Below, in pieces: positions 23,183 to 31,058 of a stretch of 64,000 bases of DNA. How positions within the stretch are numbered: the stretch's first letter is position 1; every line of letters begins with the position of its first letter. This DNA is from a phage. Where the stretch lies: the NCBI GenBank assembly GCA_024686575.1, contig GCA_024686575.1_4863.1. One strand, 5' to 3'. A model generated the notes under the pieces. It saw nothing but the letters and a program-made list of their open reading frames with translations, was not told the origin of the DNA and did no database searches. The position numbers and the translations under genes are program-made.

Positions 23183-24445
23183 ATGATGAGTAACGAGACC
23201 GATAAGAACGATCCGGGGTATGACCCGAATACCGACTACGACAATTCGTATCAAAACCCGAATAATATCGATGCAGTACCATCGGTCGCCGACTACTTTG
23301 ACCGTCGACTGTCCGATGCGAAACCCACCACGGCGTACAACGTTAATGATGAGTTATCGGGTTGGAATGACCGTATCCGTCTTACGTTAGGTTTGGGTCT
23401 GGCTGCGCAGCGTGTGACCAACCCCTACATGGGGTTCAACCATATGATGGCGTCGAACCCGACGCCTGTTAACCGTGAGTACGGTGGTCTAACCTTTATT
23501 ACCCGCCCTGACTTCAACTTGTGCTTTGACAACATTGCCAACTCGCGCAAGATGTCGAACATGGCTTCTCAGCCGAAATCGTCACTCGACTATTCCATTC
23601 TGGCAGCGTTAGACCCAGATTTTGAATTGGGGTTCTCTGATTCACCGATGGAAGATGGGCGAAGAAAGAACCGTTTGGGCACGCCATTCATGAAGGACAT
23701 TATGTTTGACAATCTTCAGGCATTCATACCATTGCTGAGTACACAGATGCTGAGCCTCTCGGGGATGCCTGACCAGTCTGTCGATAACTGGATGTCTGAA
23801 GAAGGTTTGATGCGCGAACAGTGGGGTATGGTTGACTCCACACATGAAATCAATAACCAGTACAGCATGTCGATGTCGCTGAACAACCCATACGGCAACC
23901 CTATCATGCGAATGATGGGTGTGTGGCTGGAGTATATGTCCGGCATTAAAATGGGTAAGTTCAAACCGAAGATGCGTAACTCCATCCAACGTCGCATTGA
24001 CTACCAGTCAAGGATGTACGGGTTTAAATACGACGCACTCGGAAACATTACCCGTTTCTGGACAGCGTGTGTTTGTTGGCCGATGAACGATAACGCCGGT
24101 CAAATGGCGAACGTCGATAACACCAAGCCTCAATTAAATGACGACACCACAATTAACCTCAACTGGCAATGCATCGGGGCGCGCTTCGATGACCCATTGT
24201 ACATGGAGATGTTCAACTTGACGGTGTCTATGTTTAACCCGGATATGATGCCGCAACCAGGGAGTGTTGCAGCGGGCAACTTTATCCCGATTGCCGAAGA
24301 CCAGCTTGTGCCGATTGCACCACAGCTACTACCGCTGTTCAACTACTACGGCTATCCGCACATCGACTCCCTGCGTCGTAAGCTGACCTGGTATGTTTAT
24401 CAGGCAGATTACCAATTCATCCTTAAACGAGCGGGCTTACTGTAA
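23183..24445 (+). CDS. hypothetical protein
   Basis: 420-aa ORF, GGAG RBS; stop overlaps the next start (TAATG). Confidence 0.55.
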   Translation: MMSNETDKNDPGYDPNTDYDNSYQNPNNIDAVPSVADYFDRRLSDAKPTTAYNVNDELSGWNDRIRLTLGLGLAAQRVTNPYMGFNHMMASNPTPVNREYGGLTFITRPDFNLCFDNIANSRKMSNMASQPKSSLDYSILAALDPDFELGFSDSPMEDGRRKNRLGTPFMKDIMFDNLQAFIPLLSTQMLSLSGMPDQSVDNWMSEEGLMREQWGMVDSTHEINNQYSMSMSLNNPYGNPIMRMMGVWLEYMSGIKMGKFKPKMRNSIQRRIDYQSRMYGFKYDALGNITRFWTACVCWPMNDNAGQMANVDNTKPQLNDDTTINLNWQCIGARFDDPLYMEMFNLTVSMFNPDMMPQPGSVAAGNFIPIAEDQLVPIAPQLLPLFNYYGYPHIDSLRRKLTWYVYQADYQFILKRAGLL

Positions 24446-27405
24446 TGACTACGAAAACGTACGACGCATTATCGAAAGACTTGCTACTGATGGCACATAA
24501 CCCATCAGCAATGCAGTCGTTAATGCTGAACCAGCTCCAAGACGTGCAGGACGCCGACGGGCAAATCCTGCTACGTGACCCGACCGACCCGGTGGTCTAC
24601 ATGACCGAAGTCGGAATTACGATGGGCCACACGATTATCCAGGGCGATCGGGACACCATTCCGAAAATGTTCCCCTCTATGGCACAAACTCACGATGATC
24701 TGTTCCGCCACATGTCTGACGTGGATTATGTCGATGTTTTTGCCCAGCCATCACAAGCGACCTTACTGCTGCTTCTAGATGTCGACTCTCTATTAGCGAA
24801 GGCGATGCCGTTAAACGTGGCAGGTATTCGTAAAGTAGTGATTCCGCGGGATACCGTCTTTACTGTTTCAGGTTACAACTTTGCCATTCAGTATCCCATC
24901 GAAATTCGAGTGCTGCCGTATGGTACTGTTGATAATCCAGCCTTCCAGGTCTTGTGGATTACCGAAACCCAGTCACCGATATCGCCCGTAACCACTAACG
25001 CGTTGGACTGGGAACTGACAAGTGTTCCCAGCACACCGTCGCAGATACTGGCTATCCGTATTCCGGTGATGCAGTACAGTGTAAAGGACGAGAACGATAC
25101 GTTGTTGGGGCAGAACACGTTTGTGATGACGCGCACGTTCACCAACAAGTTCTTCTACGCACGGGTGTGGAATAAACCGTCCAATTCAAACACCTGGACA
25201 GAAATCCATCACACGCACAGTCGTGACGTTTACGATCCAAACACACCTACGGCGCTGATTCAAGTCGTTAACCAGTCCATTCGCTGTACGATACCGTCTA
25301 TCTACATGGCGAAGAACCTGGTAAGTGGTGAAATCCGCATGGACGTATATACGACCATCGGGCCACTCGACCTCGACGTTTCTGCATTTCCGGCGGACGA
25401 GTACACCTTCTCATTGCGCGACTTGAACGGTGAATACGATGCGGGATACATCAACCCGTTGAAATCATTCTCCATCAAAATGCTGGTTGCTGAAGAAGGC
25501 AGTTACGCCACCGGGGGGCGTACACAACTTTCGTTTGATGAGTTGCGTGACCGTGTGGTAAATAACGCTGTGGGGATTCGCAAACTGCCTGTAACGGAAA
25601 AGCAGTTAGAAGCCACCGTATCGGATTACGGTCTAACGTTATCGAAGCCAAACGATTACGTAACTGGGCGTACTTACTTCCTGACTGCGCCGATGCCGGA
25701 GTCCACGTTATCTAAAGTGAGTTCCCCTATCGGAACCATCACCGCCCCGCTGTACTTTAGCTGGGATGAACTGGTGAAACTGCCGACGGTCCGTATTAAC
25801 GGCAACCGTTTGACGATTGAGCCGGATACGCTGTATCGCTTTACGGATACCAGTCTGCAAATCGATGCGGAGATGACCATCCTTGCGAAGACCATGCGTA
25901 AAGAAGATTTGGTTAACGCGGGTAACACTAACCGTTACCTGTTCACACCGTTCCATTACGTGGTGGACATTAACAACAAATCTTGCGATGTTCGTATTTA
26001 CCAACTCGATAAACCGCAGTTGAACTCAAAACGTTTCGTTAGCACCAACGTGACAACGGAGCTGAGTGTTGTCACTGCAGATTATCAGATTGAGAAAACG
26101 AGCGAAGGTTATATCCTGCGCACTGTGACTAAGTCAGAACCGCCATACCAGGCGTTAAGTGATGACCAAGTCTTTGCGCAGATTTCCTTCTCGCCACGCA
26201 ACGCAGACGGTAAGTTGGCGTACATCAACGGCACCTTAGTGGGTCGTCAAGGTTCGGAGCGTGTATGGGAATTCTTGTTGAAAACCAATCTCGATGTTGA
26301 CCGTAACGATGAGCTGATTATCAACAACACCCGAATCACCACCGAAGTGGATGTGGACACACCTGCACCGTTGTTAACCGAGTATAACGTGTTCTACGGC
26401 TGTACGGGTTACTACCCCGGTAATTACGAACGCGCTGAAATGGATACAATGATTGTACCGCCTGCGCGCGATGGTATTGGGATTACTCATGAGATTTTCA
26501 AAATCGAGCTGGGTAAAGCCATGTCCTATTACTGGCGAAAAGCACGTGCAGTAACGGACAGCATCAACTACGAATACTACCAGAAGGACGTTCTGGCGTA
26601 TTGGGAAAAGGATGTTATTAAAACCAAAGAAGATGGTGTAACGCCTGAGTATACGTACGACCCTAATGCTGTTCCACCGTTGCAAATCACGTACCTGCAT
26701 CGCAAAGGCGATCCGAAAATAGACCCGGTCACCGGTGAACAAGAAATCGCACACCACGTTGGGGAGCAAATCTTCGACGGGAACGGTCAGCCTATTATTG
26801 CGAAACCGCGCAGTATTAAGTTCCGTAGTGAAATGGCTGTCTTTGATGCCCGTTATAAGTTCGCAACCTCGAAAGCGGTTAAAACGTACCTTGATAGCGT
26901 AATTGACAACATCATCAACTATGTTACGGTGGTACTGCCTAATCTGAAACCGCTGCTGTTGGAGCAAACTGAAGGCTTCTTTGTTCCTATCACCACGATG
27001 GGTTATATCGACGTACGTACCGAAGACGGGGTTGTGTCACCGTTGCCTGCTGAAAACCAGTTCACTGTCAAATATTACCTCACGGCAGCGAACCGCGCAA
27101 ACAGCGAGCTTCTGGCACAAATCCGGAAACGGACTTCGCAAGTCATTAACGATTATCTGTCAACACATCTGACCGTTTCAGCAACCGAGATTGGTAATGC
27201 GCTACGCACCACGCTTAACGATGCCATTATCGGTGTTGAACTCGACGACATGGGGCCAGATAAAGACCTGCGACTGTTCACTGTCATTACCGAAGCGGCA
27301 CGTGCCACGATTGGTAAGAAGCTCGATATCGAAGCCAATGGCGACATCGGTTTGAAAGATGACATCGTACTGTCGTACAACCGTCACGATACCGAAAAAG
27401 AATAA
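24445..27405 (+). CDS. large hypothetical protein (virion structural candidate)
   Basis: 986-aa ORF translationally coupled to the upstream gene; strong terminator directly downstream. Structural role inferred from size only. Confidence 0.6.
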   Translation: MTTKTYDALSKDLLLMAHNPSAMQSLMLNQLQDVQDADGQILLRDPTDPVVYMTEVGITMGHTIIQGDRDTIPKMFPSMAQTHDDLFRHMSDVDYVDVFAQPSQATLLLLLDVDSLLAKAMPLNVAGIRKVVIPRDTVFTVSGYNFAIQYPIEIRVLPYGTVDNPAFQVLWITETQSPISPVTTNALDWELTSVPSTPSQILAIRIPVMQYSVKDENDTLLGQNTFVMTRTFTNKFFYARVWNKPSNSNTWTEIHHTHSRDVYDPNTPTALIQVVNQSIRCTIPSIYMAKNLVSGEIRMDVYTTIGPLDLDVSAFPADEYTFSLRDLNGEYDAGYINPLKSFSIKMLVAEEGSYATGGRTQLSFDELRDRVVNNAVGIRKLPVTEKQLEATVSDYGLTLSKPNDYVTGRTYFLTAPMPESTLSKVSSPIGTITAPLYFSWDELVKLPTVRINGNRLTIEPDTLYRFTDTSLQIDAEMTILAKTMRKEDLVNAGNTNRYLFTPFHYVVDINNKSCDVRIYQLDKPQLNSKRFVSTNVTTELSVVTADYQIEKTSEGYILRTVTKSEPPYQALSDDQVFAQISFSPRNADGKLAYINGTLVGRQGSERVWEFLLKTNLDVDRNDELIINNTRITTEVDVDTPAPLLTEYNVFYGCTGYYPGNYERAEMDTMIVPPARDGIGITHEIFKIELGKAMSYYWRKARAVTDSINYEYYQKDVLAYWEKDVIKTKEDGVTPEYTYDPNAVPPLQITYLHRKGDPKIDPVTGEQEIAHHVGEQIFDGNGQPIIAKPRSIKFRSEMAVFDARYKFATSKAVKTYLDSVIDNIINYVTVVLPNLKPLLLEQTEGFFVPITTMGYIDVRTEDGVVSPLPAENQFTVKYYLTAANRANSELLAQIRKRTSQVINDYLSTHLTVSATEIGNALRTTLNDAIIGVELDDMGPDKDLRLFTVITEAARATIGKKLDIEANGDIGLKDDIVLSYNRHDTEKE

Positions 27406-27411
27406 AAAGCA

Positions 27412-27450
27412 CTACCCTCTCCCGAAGGAGAGGGTAGCCTTTTATTTTAT
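27412..27450. terminator. bidirectional rho-independent terminator
   Basis: Hairpin CTACCCTCTCC-CGAA-GGAGAGGGTAG flanked by an A-run on the 5' side and a T-run on the 3' side, between convergent genes. Confidence 0.7.
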
Positions 27451-29180
27451 TCGCCGTCAAGCATATTTTTGCGATTATTGCCTTTCACCAACGGGTTACG
27501 TTTGGCCAGGTTCAGTATCGTCTGCAGTGTAGCGGCAGCACCGCAACAACGACGCACCAAAGACAGGTTACGTCGCAAGCCGACGAAGAGGTCTTCATCC
27601 CCGTCTGGGGAGAATAACACCATCGAGAGTTCACGACCGTCGGTACGCAGGCCAGAAGGCTGATTAAGCTCATTCATGATGACTTCGCTAATCAGGTTAA
27701 CGTATTCAACGTTATCCTTGGTTGCTTTCTGGAACTGCTCCAACACTTTAATCGTGTTGTTAACCGCCTTATCCAGTGCACTGTAACGATTCAGGTTAGT
27801 CGCAGCGGTGTCGTTGGTAAAGCCTTGTTTACCTAACGTTACCACTACAGCCAGCAACTCACGTTCGTCACCAACCGATAACGTGCCTGCCTGACGCATT
27901 TGCTCTAAACACTCGCGTCCCAAGAACGCAGATGCTTGTGCGTTGACCAATACCTTACCAGGCACGAAGTCCACACCATCGTCATGACCCACCAAACCAC
28001 GAACTTTGTTTTCTGGGATAACGACCAAAGGTGCAGTAGCGTATTCGAATCCTTTGCGGGAAACGTCGCTGATGATGAAGTTCATCGTGGTGTTCAGCTG
28101 CGCTAACGCCTGACCGAAAATAAGCGCGGTGTCGTGTGCTGCTTTGTTAACTTGCTTACCGTTGTGCGTGGTGGTTGAACCTTGCTGATTCTTAAAACCT
28201 TCGGCGACGCTTGGGTCAATCATCGCTTTAAAGGCACTCTGGAGCGAGCCAAAGTAACCGATAAGTTCGCTGGCAACATTCGACATCTGATGGAAGTTCA
28301 ACAGGTTCGGAATACGCACACCGGCTTCGCGAGCAGACTTCGGTAACGCCTGCCAGGCTTTCTTACCCACTTCAATCGGGTAGATACCGTACGTCACGTT
28401 GTGTTGTAACAGGGTGTCTAACAGATCGTGAATAACCTGCTGGCTTGACTGACGTTTCTTAGTGTAGCCTTTGAACAACTCAGTGAACGGCGAACGACCC
28501 AGCGCGCTGCTCAAGTCGTTCAGATACTCTTCCGCGTTCATGTTCGTAAACACTTCGTCGGCCATCGCGATAGCCAAGTTCAGGTTTTCCAGATCACGAC
28601 CTTTCAGACCCTTAGAGGCTTCGATGTATGCATCTTTCACTGCGCTGATTTTCAACTGACCGATGATAGTGTTTTCGGTCTGGGAGAAACTCTCTGCTTT
28701 TTCGCCGACTTTCTCAGCGTAACCTTCGCCGTCGAATTCGCCATTACCAGCAAACCCGTTACCGTTGCTGATAATCCAACCGATGATTTTGATAATCGCG
28801 GTCATGATCAACACAACCAATCCCACTTTACCTGCATTTGCCCAGGATTCGAGCGCAACAATAGTCTCTTTCTGGTGCGTGCGGGTATAGTTCGAGGTCA
28901 GGATTTTGCGAACGGCTTCGGGAATTGTACCTGGGCGAGAAGATTCAACAGCGACAGCGACATCTTTCGACAGACCTGCGCGACGCACTTCGTCAAGAAT
29001 CGCGTCAATTTGCAGAATCAGTCGAGAGCCGTAGATTAAGTCAGCTTCGTTGCGTTGCATGTACAGATTGAGCTGGTTGACAGAATCAATACGCTCGGCC
29101 ATACGTGAACGCAGGACTTCACCGATCTCCCCCAAACGCCATTTGGGGTGGGTGGCGTTACCTGTCATTTCCATGCTCAT
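27447..29180 (-). CDS. hypothetical membrane-associated protein
   Basis: 577 aa with a hydrophobic segment VGLVVLIMTAIIKIIGWII. Confidence 0.55.
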   Translation of the reverse strand: MSMEMTGNATHPKWRLGEIGEVLRSRMAERIDSVNQLNLYMQRNEADLIYGSRLILQIDAILDEVRRAGLSKDVAVAVESSRPGTIPEAVRKILTSNYTRTHQKETIVALESWANAGKVGLVVLIMTAIIKIIGWIISNGNGFAGNGEFDGEGYAEKVGEKAESFSQTENTIIGQLKISAVKDAYIEASKGLKGRDLENLNLAIAMADEVFTNMNAEEYLNDLSSALGRSPFTELFKGYTKKRQSSQQVIHDLLDTLLQHNVTYGIYPIEVGKKAWQALPKSAREAGVRIPNLLNFHQMSNVASELIGYFGSLQSAFKAMIDPSVAEGFKNQQGSTTTHNGKQVNKAAHDTALIFGQALAQLNTTMNFIISDVSRKGFEYATAPLVVIPENKVRGLVGHDDGVDFVPGKVLVNAQASAFLGRECLEQMRQAGTLSVGDERELLAVVVTLGKQGFTNDTAATNLNRYSALDKAVNNTIKVLEQFQKATKDNVEYVNLISEVIMNELNQPSGLRTDGRELSMVLFSPDGDEDLFVGLRRNLSLVRRCCGAAATLQTILNLAKRNPLVKGNNRKNMLDGE

Positions 29181-29620
29181 GAAATTTGCCCTTTCAGTTC
29201 TGCCATGTAGAAACCAACCACTTCCATAAAGCGGCTAATCCACAGACCGACGGTTTCCCAGATATCTTCACCGAGCGCCTGGTTGAAGATTTCACGAACA
29301 GAGAAACTTTCCAGGGCTTTAGCGCCGCCATACACGTTGCAGTAACGATTGCAGTACAGACCCACGGTCATGTCCTCAATCACGCCCAAATCAACACAGT
29401 ACAGCTCGTTAACGTCGGAGACGATATTACGCATTACCGGACGTAAAAACGTCCCAGCGGCCTCTGCAGCGCCATATTGGCCATTATCAGCCAGTACCGC
29501 GTTATACGCCAGTGAGAAAGCAACCAGACCAGTCAAAGCACGCTGGGCGTGTACGCCTTTCCCTTCGTTGGTACGTTTGAAATCCAGTACCAGGTTATTT
29601 AAAGAAACTTTGTGCGTCAT
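29177..29620 (-). CDS. hypothetical protein
   Basis: 147-aa ORF overlapping the downstream gene by 4 nt. Confidence 0.45.
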   Translation of the reverse strand: MTHKVSLNNLVLDFKRTNEGKGVHAQRALTGLVAFSLAYNAVLADNGQYGAAEAAGTFLRPVMRNIVSDVNELYCVDLGVIEDMTVGLYCNRYCNVYGGAKALESFSVREIFNQALGEDIWETVGLWISRFMEVVGFYMAELKGQIS

Positions 29621-29635
29621 GTTAAGTACCCTTAC

Positions 29636-30988
29636 TTAGGAAGAAGTCGCCTGACTAAGCTTCGCAGAAGCCACACGCAGGTCATTAGAAAGATAGCGCT
29701 CCATCGTACGCTGATAATCCACCCCAGCACGCTCACGGCGACCGCCAGGGGTCAGCGTTTTCATGATGAAGCTAAAGACGTTGTCTTTGTCTTTCACGGT
29801 TTTCAGTAGTTCGTCGATAGACGCAATGCCCTGCAGAATACGTTTACGATGTTCGTTCGCTTCTTTCGTGGTGCTGCCTTTTAAGGTGTTCAGCTCCTCC
29901 ACTAAGTTACGGCGCATCGTCTCAAAACGTTCCTGCGGCGGATCGTAGATGGTGTTGCGTGGGTCGTTCACAATCAGGCCGAACGCGACTGAGATAGTCG
30001 TGAAGAACAGACCAACTGGATTAGTCGAAGCCACAATCAGCAGCGAAACGTTAAGCATCTCCAGCATCAGATGCACACCGTAGTTCATGTACGACGCGTT
30101 CCGGCAGAGATAGAATTGGGACGTTTCGATTTTGTACAAGGCTGACGCCAGGTACGGGGCTGCACCAAAGCGAGCTGCGAAGTCATCTGCAGCACGTTCC
30201 CAGGTACGGTTAGCGAACCCTTCCGAACCGGTAACAAACGGACGCTCAAGCAGAATGTCTGTCACCAGATGCATGTAGATGTTCTCTTTAGACATCTCTT
30301 TGCAGATAGTTTCCGGCTGATTCACTTTGGTGTTCAGCATACGTTCAACGTCTTTTACGACTTTTAAACGCACTGTCGGGTCTTCTGTTTGCATCATGCG
30401 GTTCGCTGCAGCATCCGCAATCAGGTTCGTTACCACCGTACGCATCAAGGTACGGAAATAGTAATAGACGTGACCGACTTCATGTAGAATAATCGCCGCG
30501 ACTTCTAAATCCGTTAACTCGATACCTGTCAGTAGTTTCGGGGTCAGCCAAAGTGGGGACGGCACCTTGCTGAGTTCGCCTGAAAGCTTCGCATTTTTAT
30601 CGTCGAACTCGCCGTTCAGCTCGTTCTCTTTTAAGAACTTACTGTAGACATCCAGGTCGGTGTTACCCTGCACCATCTTGCGTTGCAGGTCGGCGATGAT
30701 TGGGTTGTTCGCGTCGAGCTTCGGTGGCTCCACACCCGCAAACACAACGTCCGCCACACCTAAGTCGGACCCGTTACGAGGCAGGACTGTAATACCGTTG
30801 TTGTCAAAGACCCAGGCAGCAATACCAGAACTCTGATAACCCGCTGGCGAGAAGTCGCCCGCATCACGGAACTTACGTACCACTTCCGCCAAAGAGGCGA
30901 GTTTCTTTTTATCTTGGAATCCGATGGACTCCGAGGCCACGGCTTTCGCGTCGGCCAACGAGGTTATGTGCTTTTGCCAGTGTCCCAT
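29636..30988 (-). CDS. putative zinc metallopeptidase (HExxH) with transmembrane segments
   Basis: 450 aa; AAIILHEVGHVYYY carries an HExxH zinc-binding motif; hydrophobic stretch LLIVASTNPVGLFFTTISVAFGLIV. Confidence 0.5.
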   Translation of the reverse strand: MGHWQKHITSLADAKAVASESIGFQDKKKLASLAEVVRKFRDAGDFSPAGYQSSGIAAWVFDNNGITVLPRNGSDLGVADVVFAGVEPPKLDANNPIIADLQRKMVQGNTDLDVYSKFLKENELNGEFDDKNAKLSGELSKVPSPLWLTPKLLTGIELTDLEVAAIILHEVGHVYYYFRTLMRTVVTNLIADAAANRMMQTEDPTVRLKVVKDVERMLNTKVNQPETICKEMSKENIYMHLVTDILLERPFVTGSEGFANRTWERAADDFAARFGAAPYLASALYKIETSQFYLCRNASYMNYGVHLMLEMLNVSLLIVASTNPVGLFFTTISVAFGLIVNDPRNTIYDPPQERFETMRRNLVEELNTLKGSTTKEANEHRKRILQGIASIDELLKTVKDKDNVFSFIMKTLTPGGRRERAGVDYQRTMERYLSNDLRVASAKLSQATSS

Positions 30989-31058
30989 TTAGACGTTCCT
31001 TTTAGAAAATACGTTACCCACAAATCAGTATAGCAGACACCATATTTGAGAGTAGACC

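Follow-up and report, generated by a model that had tools for sequence, protein, structure and literature searches.

The stretch of phage DNA analysed here (the window, 64,000 nt) carries three open reading frames (ORFs) that lie head to tail on the minus strand and encode proteins of 450, 147 and 577 amino acids (aa) (Table 1). Over these 3.5 kb the window shows 99.5% DNA identity to Salmonella phage SPN3US (Seoulvirus), with equal gene order and only a few substitutions setting the two apart, and 96–99% identity to about 30 relatives. The region is the gp45-gp46-gp47 late operon of an SPN3US-type nucleus-forming giant phage, and the gene numbers gp44 to gp49 used here follow SPN3US. For the three genes they were obtained by counting from the published gp42 and gp44, and they agree with PMC5694885, in which gp46 is the gene immediately upstream of gp47 and the gp47 start, revised by mass spectrometry, matches that of the 577-aa ORF. 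The ATG of gp47 overlaps the stop codon of gp46 (ATGA). In the SPN3US record the ORFs are labelled 'putative virion structural protein 1' and, for the other two, hypothetical proteins; their neighbours there encode a DNA polymerase, a beta' fragment of the virion RNA polymerase and large virion proteins.

The products of gp45, gp46 and gp47 constitute a head-internal module conserved across the Chimalliviridae, and gp45 very probably carries an M48-like zinc-metallopeptidase active site. Genome identity together with published proteomics establishes the gene identity, head location and processing of gp45 and gp47: two SPN3US papers (PMC5694885, PMC10052503) report both proteins from heads purified on caesium chloride (CsCl) and describe both as cut by the prohead protease gp245. 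According to the former, gp45 is a head protein of mid abundance, and the spectral counts of gp45 and gp47 fall between those of the portal and the tail sheath. The original prediction for this region had described a membrane-associated cluster with an HExxH metallopeptidase, pointing to an HEVGH motif and hydrophobic helices in the 450-aa ORF and to a transmembrane-like segment in the 577-aa ORF; all three features are present. The 147-aa ORF between the two was not mentioned in it.

Table 1. Coordinates of the gp45-gp46-gp47 unit and of the features discussed in the text.
Feature	Position in window	Strand	Remarks
gp45 homologue, M48-like head protein	29636..30988	-	phrog_2767, E=1e-167 over residues 1-447
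gp45 20-residue N-terminal propeptide, site A-S-E20 / S	30929..30988	-	translation and SPN3US mass spectrometry
gp45 HEVGH zinc-binding/catalytic motif, predicted	30470..30484	-	aa 169-173, inside predicted helix 160-199
gp45 ERAAD 'glutamate helix' with putative third zinc ligand E264	30185..30199	-	aa 264-268
gp45 hydrophobic helical hairpin, candidate membrane-inserting segment	29969..30079	-	aa 304-340; AlphaFold2 helices 303-320 and 324-340
gp45 third family motif YDxPxxR, here Y-D-P-P-Q-E-R	29927..29947	-	aa 348-354
gp46 homologue, small head protein	29177..29620	-	phrog_8529, E=1.8e-77
gp47 homologue, essential head protein	27447..29180	-	phrog_8131, E=1.2e-250
gp47 propeptide, sites AVE-79 and (expected) ALE-111	28848..29180	-	aa 1-111; cleavage sites from PMC5694885
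gp47 transmembrane-like helix	28770..28832	-	aa 117-137, near the N-terminus of the mature form after E111 cleavage
Two-way intrinsic terminator	27411..27438	both	closes the gp45-gp46-gp47 unit and convergent gp48 (+)
70-bp divergent intergenic region	30989..31058	.	between gp45 (-) and DNA-polymerase gene gp44 (+)

The probable M48-like active site of gp45

An alignment of gp45 with 62 relatives, at identities down to 20%, contains ten invariant columns, six of which are H169, E170, G172, H173, E264 and D268. The last two lie in the sequence NRTWERAAD, which has the context (S/N)RxxExxAD and retains E264 and D268 in 62/62 relatives. An HExxH arises by chance in 0.6% of 20,000 shuffles of the gp45 protein and is, taken alone, not rare across a 64-kb window; the family invariance adds weight. 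A profile search for the family returned 2417 cluster representatives at E≤1e-3 and 979 at E≤1e-30, and 224 phage records match gp45 in tblastn. Among 148 further 50%-identity cluster representatives listed, HExxH is kept in 147, the one exception being a C-terminal fragment, and ExxAD follows it at a distance of 52–101 residues in 145. The gene also matches the gp84 gene of a phiKZ-like phage (27% identity, E=1e-21), and gp45, phiKZ gp84 and Goslar gp67 form one family (phrog_2767).

Searched against the PDB, the 62-sequence profile found human ZMPSTE24 (5syt, 6bh8, 4aw6) at E=3.7e-6; the match to yeast Ste24p had E=0.0013. In the ZMPSTE24 alignment, 'EiAAIiLHElGH' stands over 'EVLAVLGHELGH' and 'RswEqlADqFAaRhGaG' over 'RRFEFQADAFAKKLGKA'; HEVGH of gp45 is aligned with HELGH, and E264 with the third zinc ligand of ZMPSTE24, E415 ('SRRFEFQAD'). 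Because this second peptidase signature is present, the HExxH of gp45 does not fall in a non-catalytic context, and the invariant NRTWERAAD helix places it in that of a real peptidase. Profile–profile comparison by hhalign also aligned the HExxH motifs of the gp45 family with those of HtpX (82% probability, E=1e-5) and of a BepA/LoiP/YcaL alignment (81%, E=1.2e-5, 83 columns), the latter match reaching into the strands that precede the active-site helix, and all four of these Escherichia coli M48 paralogues possess the same ExxAD as gp45. The AlphaFold2 model of gp45 (predicted local distance difference test, pLDDT, 73) shows three strands, the long HExxH helix and then the E264 helix; a Foldseek search with this model lists ZMPSTE24 or Ste24p in each of its best 12 rows, at E-values and TM-scores that are poor.

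Pfam M48 (PF01435) matches the gp45 of the window alone with E=0.0034 and 17.7 bits, under the gathering cut-off of 20.3, and we therefore call the protein M48-like rather than a curated M48 member; 23 of the 62 relatives individually match at E≤0.01, the best at 2e-5. gp45 is too diverged for curated family thresholds, and its architecture outside the core differs. An assignment to SprT-like or M56-type peptidases was considered and set aside: a single weak SprT-like match occurred among the relatives, and the ExxAD helix and the ZMPSTE24 alignment favour an M48-like enzyme. GenBank labels on gp45 homologues include 'beta-barrel assembly-enhancing protease' (Proteus phage 7) and 'peptidase' (Erwinia phages AH04 and AH06). 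gp45 is probably catalytically active.

With the Ste24/ZMPSTE24 (M48A), HtpX (M48B), BepA, LoiP and YcaL enzymes gp45 shares HExxH and (S/N)RxxExxAD, residue for residue in the case of ZMPSTE24, and a hydrophobic, membrane-like segment is a further feature that it has in common with most M48 enzymes. HExxH and the glutamate are 95 residues apart in gp45, 80 in ZMPSTE24 and 59–83 among the four enzymes of E. coli. The hydrophobic segment of gp45 comes after the glutamate helix and is followed by a helical C-terminal domain, and the protein has neither the seven-helix chamber of Ste24 nor the N-terminal transmembrane pair of HtpX. The HPxxxxR motif that the four E. coli paralogues keep is literally absent; at the corresponding place after the hydrophobic insert, with different spacing, stands YDxPxxR, a possible equivalent whose Y, D, P and R are kept in 58, 59, 50 and 62 of the 62 relatives, respectively. 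Unlike the M48 enzymes, gp45 bears a capsid-targeting propeptide and is packed in the virus head.

Cleavage of SPN3US gp45 at ASE-20 was found by mass spectrometry (Table 1 of PMC5694885). All 62 relatives have E20, and all 62 carry A, S or G at position -2. This pattern matches the A/S/G-x-E sites known from SPN3US head proteins, which include ATE, AQE, ASE and AVE (same source), so the gp45 family as a whole looks like a set of prohead-protease substrates, that is, of capsid-internal proteins. The hydrophobic helices seen by the original prediction correspond to the hairpin at aa 304-340, whose maximum Kyte-Doolittle mean over 19 residues is 1.64 in the window phage. For the family members' stretch that aligns with aa 298-347, the median maximum is 2.15 and 59/62 relatives reach at least 1.6; its residues are almost unconserved and its hydrophobicity is kept family-wide. 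Since hydrophobicity rather than sequence is retained here, the segment has the pattern of a membrane-embedded one.

gp46, gp47 and the vertex complex

In phiKZ, gp85 and gp86 form an inner-capsid vertex-binding complex with a gp85 dimer at its centre (PMC11297242), and a 2026 preprint describes the same complex in Goslar, made of gp66, the gp85 homologue, and gp65, a much longer gp86 homologue (10.64898/2026.04.21.720040). gp46 is a homologue of the dimer in this complex (phiKZ gp85, Goslar gp66), a relation that we draw from profile comparisons. A gp46 profile built from 57 relatives, with phiKZ excluded, finds the phiKZ-like gp85 at E=3.5e-5 in hmmsearch, and hhalign of this profile against the phiKZ-like gp85 gives 77% probability and E=1.9e-5. 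An iterated-profile value of E=1e-18 for the same pair was discarded, as the model had included its target, and the independent value of 3.5e-5 is used. Direct pairwise BLAST of gp46 against the phiKZ-like gp85 was not significant; a chain of pairwise matches through two intermediates links gp46 to Goslar gp66. The three proteins are equal in size and position. Single-sequence searches of gp46 and gp47 against PDB sequences returned nothing useful.

In the case of gp47, PMC5694885 reports cleavage at AVE-79 and, by expectation, at ALE-111, and states that the protein is essential: the particles of an amber mutant look intact and are non-infectious, a phenotype from which the SPN3US authors infer an ejection protein. 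The transmembrane-like segment that had been pointed out in this ORF scores a Kyte-Doolittle mean over 19 residues of 2.58, the highest among 51 putative genes of the window, and TMHMM predicts the same helix at the N-terminus of mature gp47 (same source). Invariant residues of gp47 are concentrated in aa 14-135, and the mature C-terminal domain diverges fast. The propeptide that is removed is far better conserved than the mature domain, and gp47 as a whole diverges faster than gp45 in the same phages (34% compared with 62% identity in Erwinia phage Caitlin).

Similarity of gp47 to distant proteins at the same genomic position is limited to about aa 20-155. Most of these positional counterparts contain an xLE or xME site and, within about 15 residues of it, a helix scoring >2; single-linkage joins 66/69 of them, Goslar gp65 included, but the links use only the N-terminal module, some 130 residues long, and several of the steps are weak. 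PMC5694885 notes that gp47 occupies the position of phiKZ gp86 in the genome without sequence similarity. gp47 is longer than gp86 and carries a strong transmembrane-like helix that gp86 lacks, and similarity between the two was detectable neither in sequence nor in predicted fold. Iterated searches with hidden Markov models, started from gp47 and from the phiKZ-like gp86, never reached each other. As neither a sequence nor a fold link to phiKZ gp86 was found, position is the basis on which we match gp47 with this protein. As the positional counterpart of phiKZ gp86 and Goslar gp65, gp47, like gp46, appears to belong to the complex under the capsid vertices. The AlphaFold2 model of gp47 has a pLDDT of 81. 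Foldseek rows for BetP, ABC transporters, a ClyA-family toxin and IpaD (the last two at probability <0.1) were regarded as noise and not used.

The closest gp47 match, P0184 (100% identity over its full length), is recorded on 172 contigs, and many near-identical gp47 proteins are labelled as proteins of Salmonella enterica or E. coli isolates, on contigs of ~240 kb. SPN3US-like phage genomes thus seem to travel in bacterial isolate assemblies, as a carrier state or as contamination.

Gene order, fusions and flanking features

Gene order was compared in 81 loci; 80 IMG/VR loci were found with the family pattern, all on contigs typical of giant phages. Right after the protease gene, 73 of the 81 have a same-strand ORF of about 130–175 aa, and in 69 of the 81 a third ORF of about 340–930 aa follows the small one. 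The order of a protease, a protein of about 147 aa and one of about 400–580 aa recurs on most of the 80 contigs, and the same order occurs in the phiKZ-like genome (gp84, gp85, gp86) and in Goslar (gp67, gp66, gp65). A divergent DNA-polymerase gene lies upstream in the window and in the SPN3US, phiKZ-like and Goslar genomes, and a convergent large virion gene downstream in SPN3US and phiKZ. In one metagenomic protein, P0066, a gp47-like N-terminal module (E=5e-9) precedes a gp45-like protease in a single chain, which hints at a functional link between gp45 and gp47 unless it is a gene-calling artefact. In P0118 the protease comes first, and the tail behind it resembles gp47 in having xLE sites, a transmembrane-like helix and a stretch rich in Gly and Ser. 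Both proteins belong to a group of gp45 relatives of 800–1450 aa (with P0092, P0139, P0173, P0056, P0089 and P0127) that may be true fusions or merged gene calls; no Pfam domain was found in the extra regions of the long fused homologues.

The unit varies in some relatives. SPFM and SPLA Seoulviruses have an extra ORF of 141 aa (phrog_22066; L088:2690-3115), with no Pfam match, between the gp45 and gp46 homologues, where the window has a gap of 15 nt (29621-29635), and in two other relatives (L010, L018) an extra ORF before gp47 gives two ORFs of 124–147 aa at that place. In Goslar (NC_048170, L089 7202-9994), gp64 of ~930 aa lies immediately downstream of gp65 in the same orientation; in SPN3US and phiKZ a second large ORF is absent after the gp47/gp86 position. 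A set of SPFM proteins (P0028-P0034, P0239, P0244, P0245, P0252) gives strong HMMER scores against gp45 or gp47, and BLAST aligns just 4–14% of the query for them, a combination that suggests frameshifted or corrupted gene models.

The hairpin that closes the unit has a near-perfect, G+C-rich stem of 12 bp, 7 of them G-C, around a loop of 4 nt, and T-runs occur on either strand; this terminator-like structure is present although the phage encodes its own RNA polymerases. The spacer upstream of gp45 holds the ribosome-binding site AAGGA of this gene and presumably phage promoters. In a scan for sigma-70 promoters the number of sites did not exceed that in shuffled sequence, and upstream of gp45 there was none; this agrees with what a phage relying on polymerases of its own should show. 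Beyond the unit, the gp48 homologue (24445-27405, plus strand, 986 aa) is called 'baseplate wedge protein' in one GenBank record, and the gp49 homologue (23183-24445, plus strand) has a match of E=8.5e-184 to the 'putative phage tail tube protein' of Pfam (PF23971); this match is at odds with the SPN3US papers, which give the tail tube to gp255. Nearly all large ORFs of the window lie on the minus strand, and its cumulative GC skew declines steadily. No tRNA genes and no Rfam families at gathering score were found in window positions 1-64000.

Storage in the head and a possible action at the entry vesicle

Nucleus-forming giant phages first deliver their genome into a lipid vesicle, and a review lists its formation and transport channels among the open questions (PMC12908238); according to recent reviews, the proteins of its membrane are likewise still to be identified. 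Our best explanation for the gp45-gp46-gp47 unit, which we put forward as a serious possibility while stopping short of calling it probable, is a head-internal module whose proteins pass into the cell together with the DNA and work at the membrane of this entry vesicle. gp45 is directed into the prohead and loses its 20-residue N-terminal peptide to the prohead protease, and the expected cleavage of gp47 at E111 leaves its transmembrane-like helix near the new N-terminus. From there we propose the following hypothetical sequence of events, in which (i) the products of gp45 to gp47 would be stored at or near the vertex complex; (ii) the module would leave the head with the DNA at infection; (iii) the hydrophobic segments of gp47 and gp45 would insert into the early infection (EPI) vesicle, which derives from the inner membrane; and (iv) gp45 would cut a host or phage substrate close to the membrane. 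We favour an action at the vesicle because hydrophobicity, not sequence, is conserved in both gp45 and gp47, because the phenotype of the gp47 mutant fits, and because the vertex complex is missing from aberrant empty Goslar capsids (10.64898/2026.04.21.720040). Ejection and membrane insertion of gp45 and gp47, taken by themselves, are a more tentative part of this proposal.

A more specific version, which we consider doubtful, makes gp45 and gp47 virion-delivered membrane proteins of the EPI vesicle. By analogy with viral fusion peptides, the gp47 helix would be primed by cleavage, and both proteins would be stored under the vertices, leave with the DNA and insert into the inner membrane. The M48-like activity of gp45 would then be required for forming, sealing or later opening the vesicle, or for ridding it of host membrane proteins.

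Known systems offer partial parallels. The T4 internal proteins and Alt, like gp45, have a short N-terminal capsid-targeting peptide that the prohead protease removes after a glutamate, and gp45 would likewise be a putative enzyme stored in the head for later use; the SPN3US authors themselves make the comparison of gp45 with the T4 internal proteins and Alt (PMC5694885). The cargo enzyme of T4 is different from gp45 and shows no homology to it, and delivery of gp45 to the host is our inference. Like the ejection proteins gp7, gp16 and gp20 of P22 and gp14, gp15 and gp16 of T7, gp47 is head-internal, dispensable for assembly and essential for infectivity, and its mature form begins with a transmembrane-like helix; there is no homology, and in contrast to these proteins the phiKZ and Goslar counterparts of gp47 are fixed under the vertices and not in the portal channel. 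A role of gp47 in an envelope conduit or in the vesicle is speculation.

Several observations weigh against an action at the vesicle membrane. Concerning the enzyme, the gp45 of the window falls below the Pfam M48 gathering cut-off and no NCBIfam model fits it, HtpX alone appearing at E=0.045; in the literature searched there is no experiment on zinc binding, proteolysis, ejection or membrane insertion of gp45 or its homologues. As regards the membrane, the hydrophobic stretch of gp45 is borderline in the window phage (1.64), the phiKZ-like gp86 and several other counterparts of gp47 are without the transmembrane-like helix, and hydrophobic helices packed in a capsid would have to be shielded. 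The sequence link between gp47 and gp86 was not found (BLAST E=0.68, hhalign probability 15%), and Foldseek of the gp47 model against the PDB gave no match, even though a phiKZ capsid structure (8Y6V) has been public since 2024. Finally, the phiKZ and Goslar counterparts are ordered on the capsid wall, which suits a structural role as well as that of stored cargo (PMC11297242; 10.64898/2026.04.21.720040).

An alternative that keeps the enzyme and dispenses with the membrane is that gp45 is an in-capsid accessory maturation peptidase, trimming or degrading the long propeptides and core fragments that gp245 has released by its cuts at A/S/G-x-E sites, so that these pieces could escape from the shell, with its hydrophobic segment serving as a protein-protein contact within the vertex complex. 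M48 enzymes typically act on unfolded chains, the catalytic residues of gp45 are invariant, and the gene shares an operon with vertex-complex genes. gp45 resides in the head and is cut by gp245, so that its short propeptide could be an activation peptide, and propeptides of 111–254 residues are removed from abundant SPN3US head proteins (PMC10052503). However, the SPN3US papers, in the sections available, ascribe the reported cleavages to gp245, after glutamate, and mention no second specificity there; the N-terminal fragment of gp47 persists in SPN3US heads (PMC5694885), and the conserved hydrophobicity without conserved sequence at aa 304-340 is left unexplained. We consider this alternative unlikely.

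Similarly improbable, in our view, is that gp45 is a structural head protein whose zincin core binds metal for stability, and that gp45 to gp47 cement the capsid wall with no action on the host. The ordered inner-capsid counterparts of gp46 and gp47 in phiKZ and Goslar, the mid-range spectral counts of gp45 and gp47 and the poor global fold similarity of gp45 to M48 enzymes suit this view. Against it, the catalytic base E170 is retained together with the three ligands in 62/62 relatives, and a structural metal site would not require E170. In addition, gp47 appears dispensable for capsid integrity, as the amber mutant builds normal-looking particles that do not infect; the empty capsids of Goslar are closed shells despite the missing vertex complex, and gp84 of phiKZ and gp67 of Goslar are absent from the proteins built in either capsid map (PMC11297242; 10.64898/2026.04.21.720040).

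Most characterised M48 enzymes are membrane-bound or membrane-associated. A membrane protease module that the infected cell produces and that takes its place in the host envelope, for remodelling or superinfection exclusion as originally suggested, would account for the protease motif and the hydrophobic segments, but it is highly improbable given that gp45 and gp47 are head proteins recovered from CsCl-purified heads with prohead-protease sites (SPN3US papers), that this site is invariant across the gp45 family, that gp45 starts with a capsid-type propeptide and has no signal peptide or N-terminal anchor, that the homologues or positional counterparts of gp46 and gp47 in phiKZ and Goslar are inner-capsid proteins, and that the genes have virion and replication genes around them and form part of the core of the phage family rather than being accessory. 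Of the proposed membrane protease module, the protease motif and the conserved hydrophobic segments hold, the role in the host envelope or in exclusion is not supported, and protein processing is a possible role of gp45.

The genes, their head location and their processing were already published, and some homologues had been auto-annotated as peptidases. What is new is that the active site and the propeptide site are invariant throughout the family, that the membrane-like insert is conserved and that the linkage to vertex-complex genes is fixed; gp45 can be described as an M48-type enzyme of unusual form, encoded by a known gene. The papers and reviews searched on nucleus-forming phages do not mention a metalloprotease, a peptidase or a transmembrane head protein, and literature searches for a role of M48 enzymes or metalloproteases in giant-phage virions and for phiKZ gp84 found no study.

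In summary, two head-packaged proteins of the module have membrane-like segments that are conserved, and one of the two, gp45, has kept an intact metalloprotease active site across thousands of sequence clusters. The idea of an action at the entry vesicle is directly testable, since amber-mutant genetics exist for SPN3US and tagged-virion injection assays for Goslar, and gp45 is a candidate, open to such tests, for a part in the earliest minutes after infection. If gp45 and gp47 do act in the EPI membrane, they would be the first named membrane components of this phage-made organelle. Even without a link to the vesicle, a predicted zinc protease in every capsid of a phage family deserves a function.

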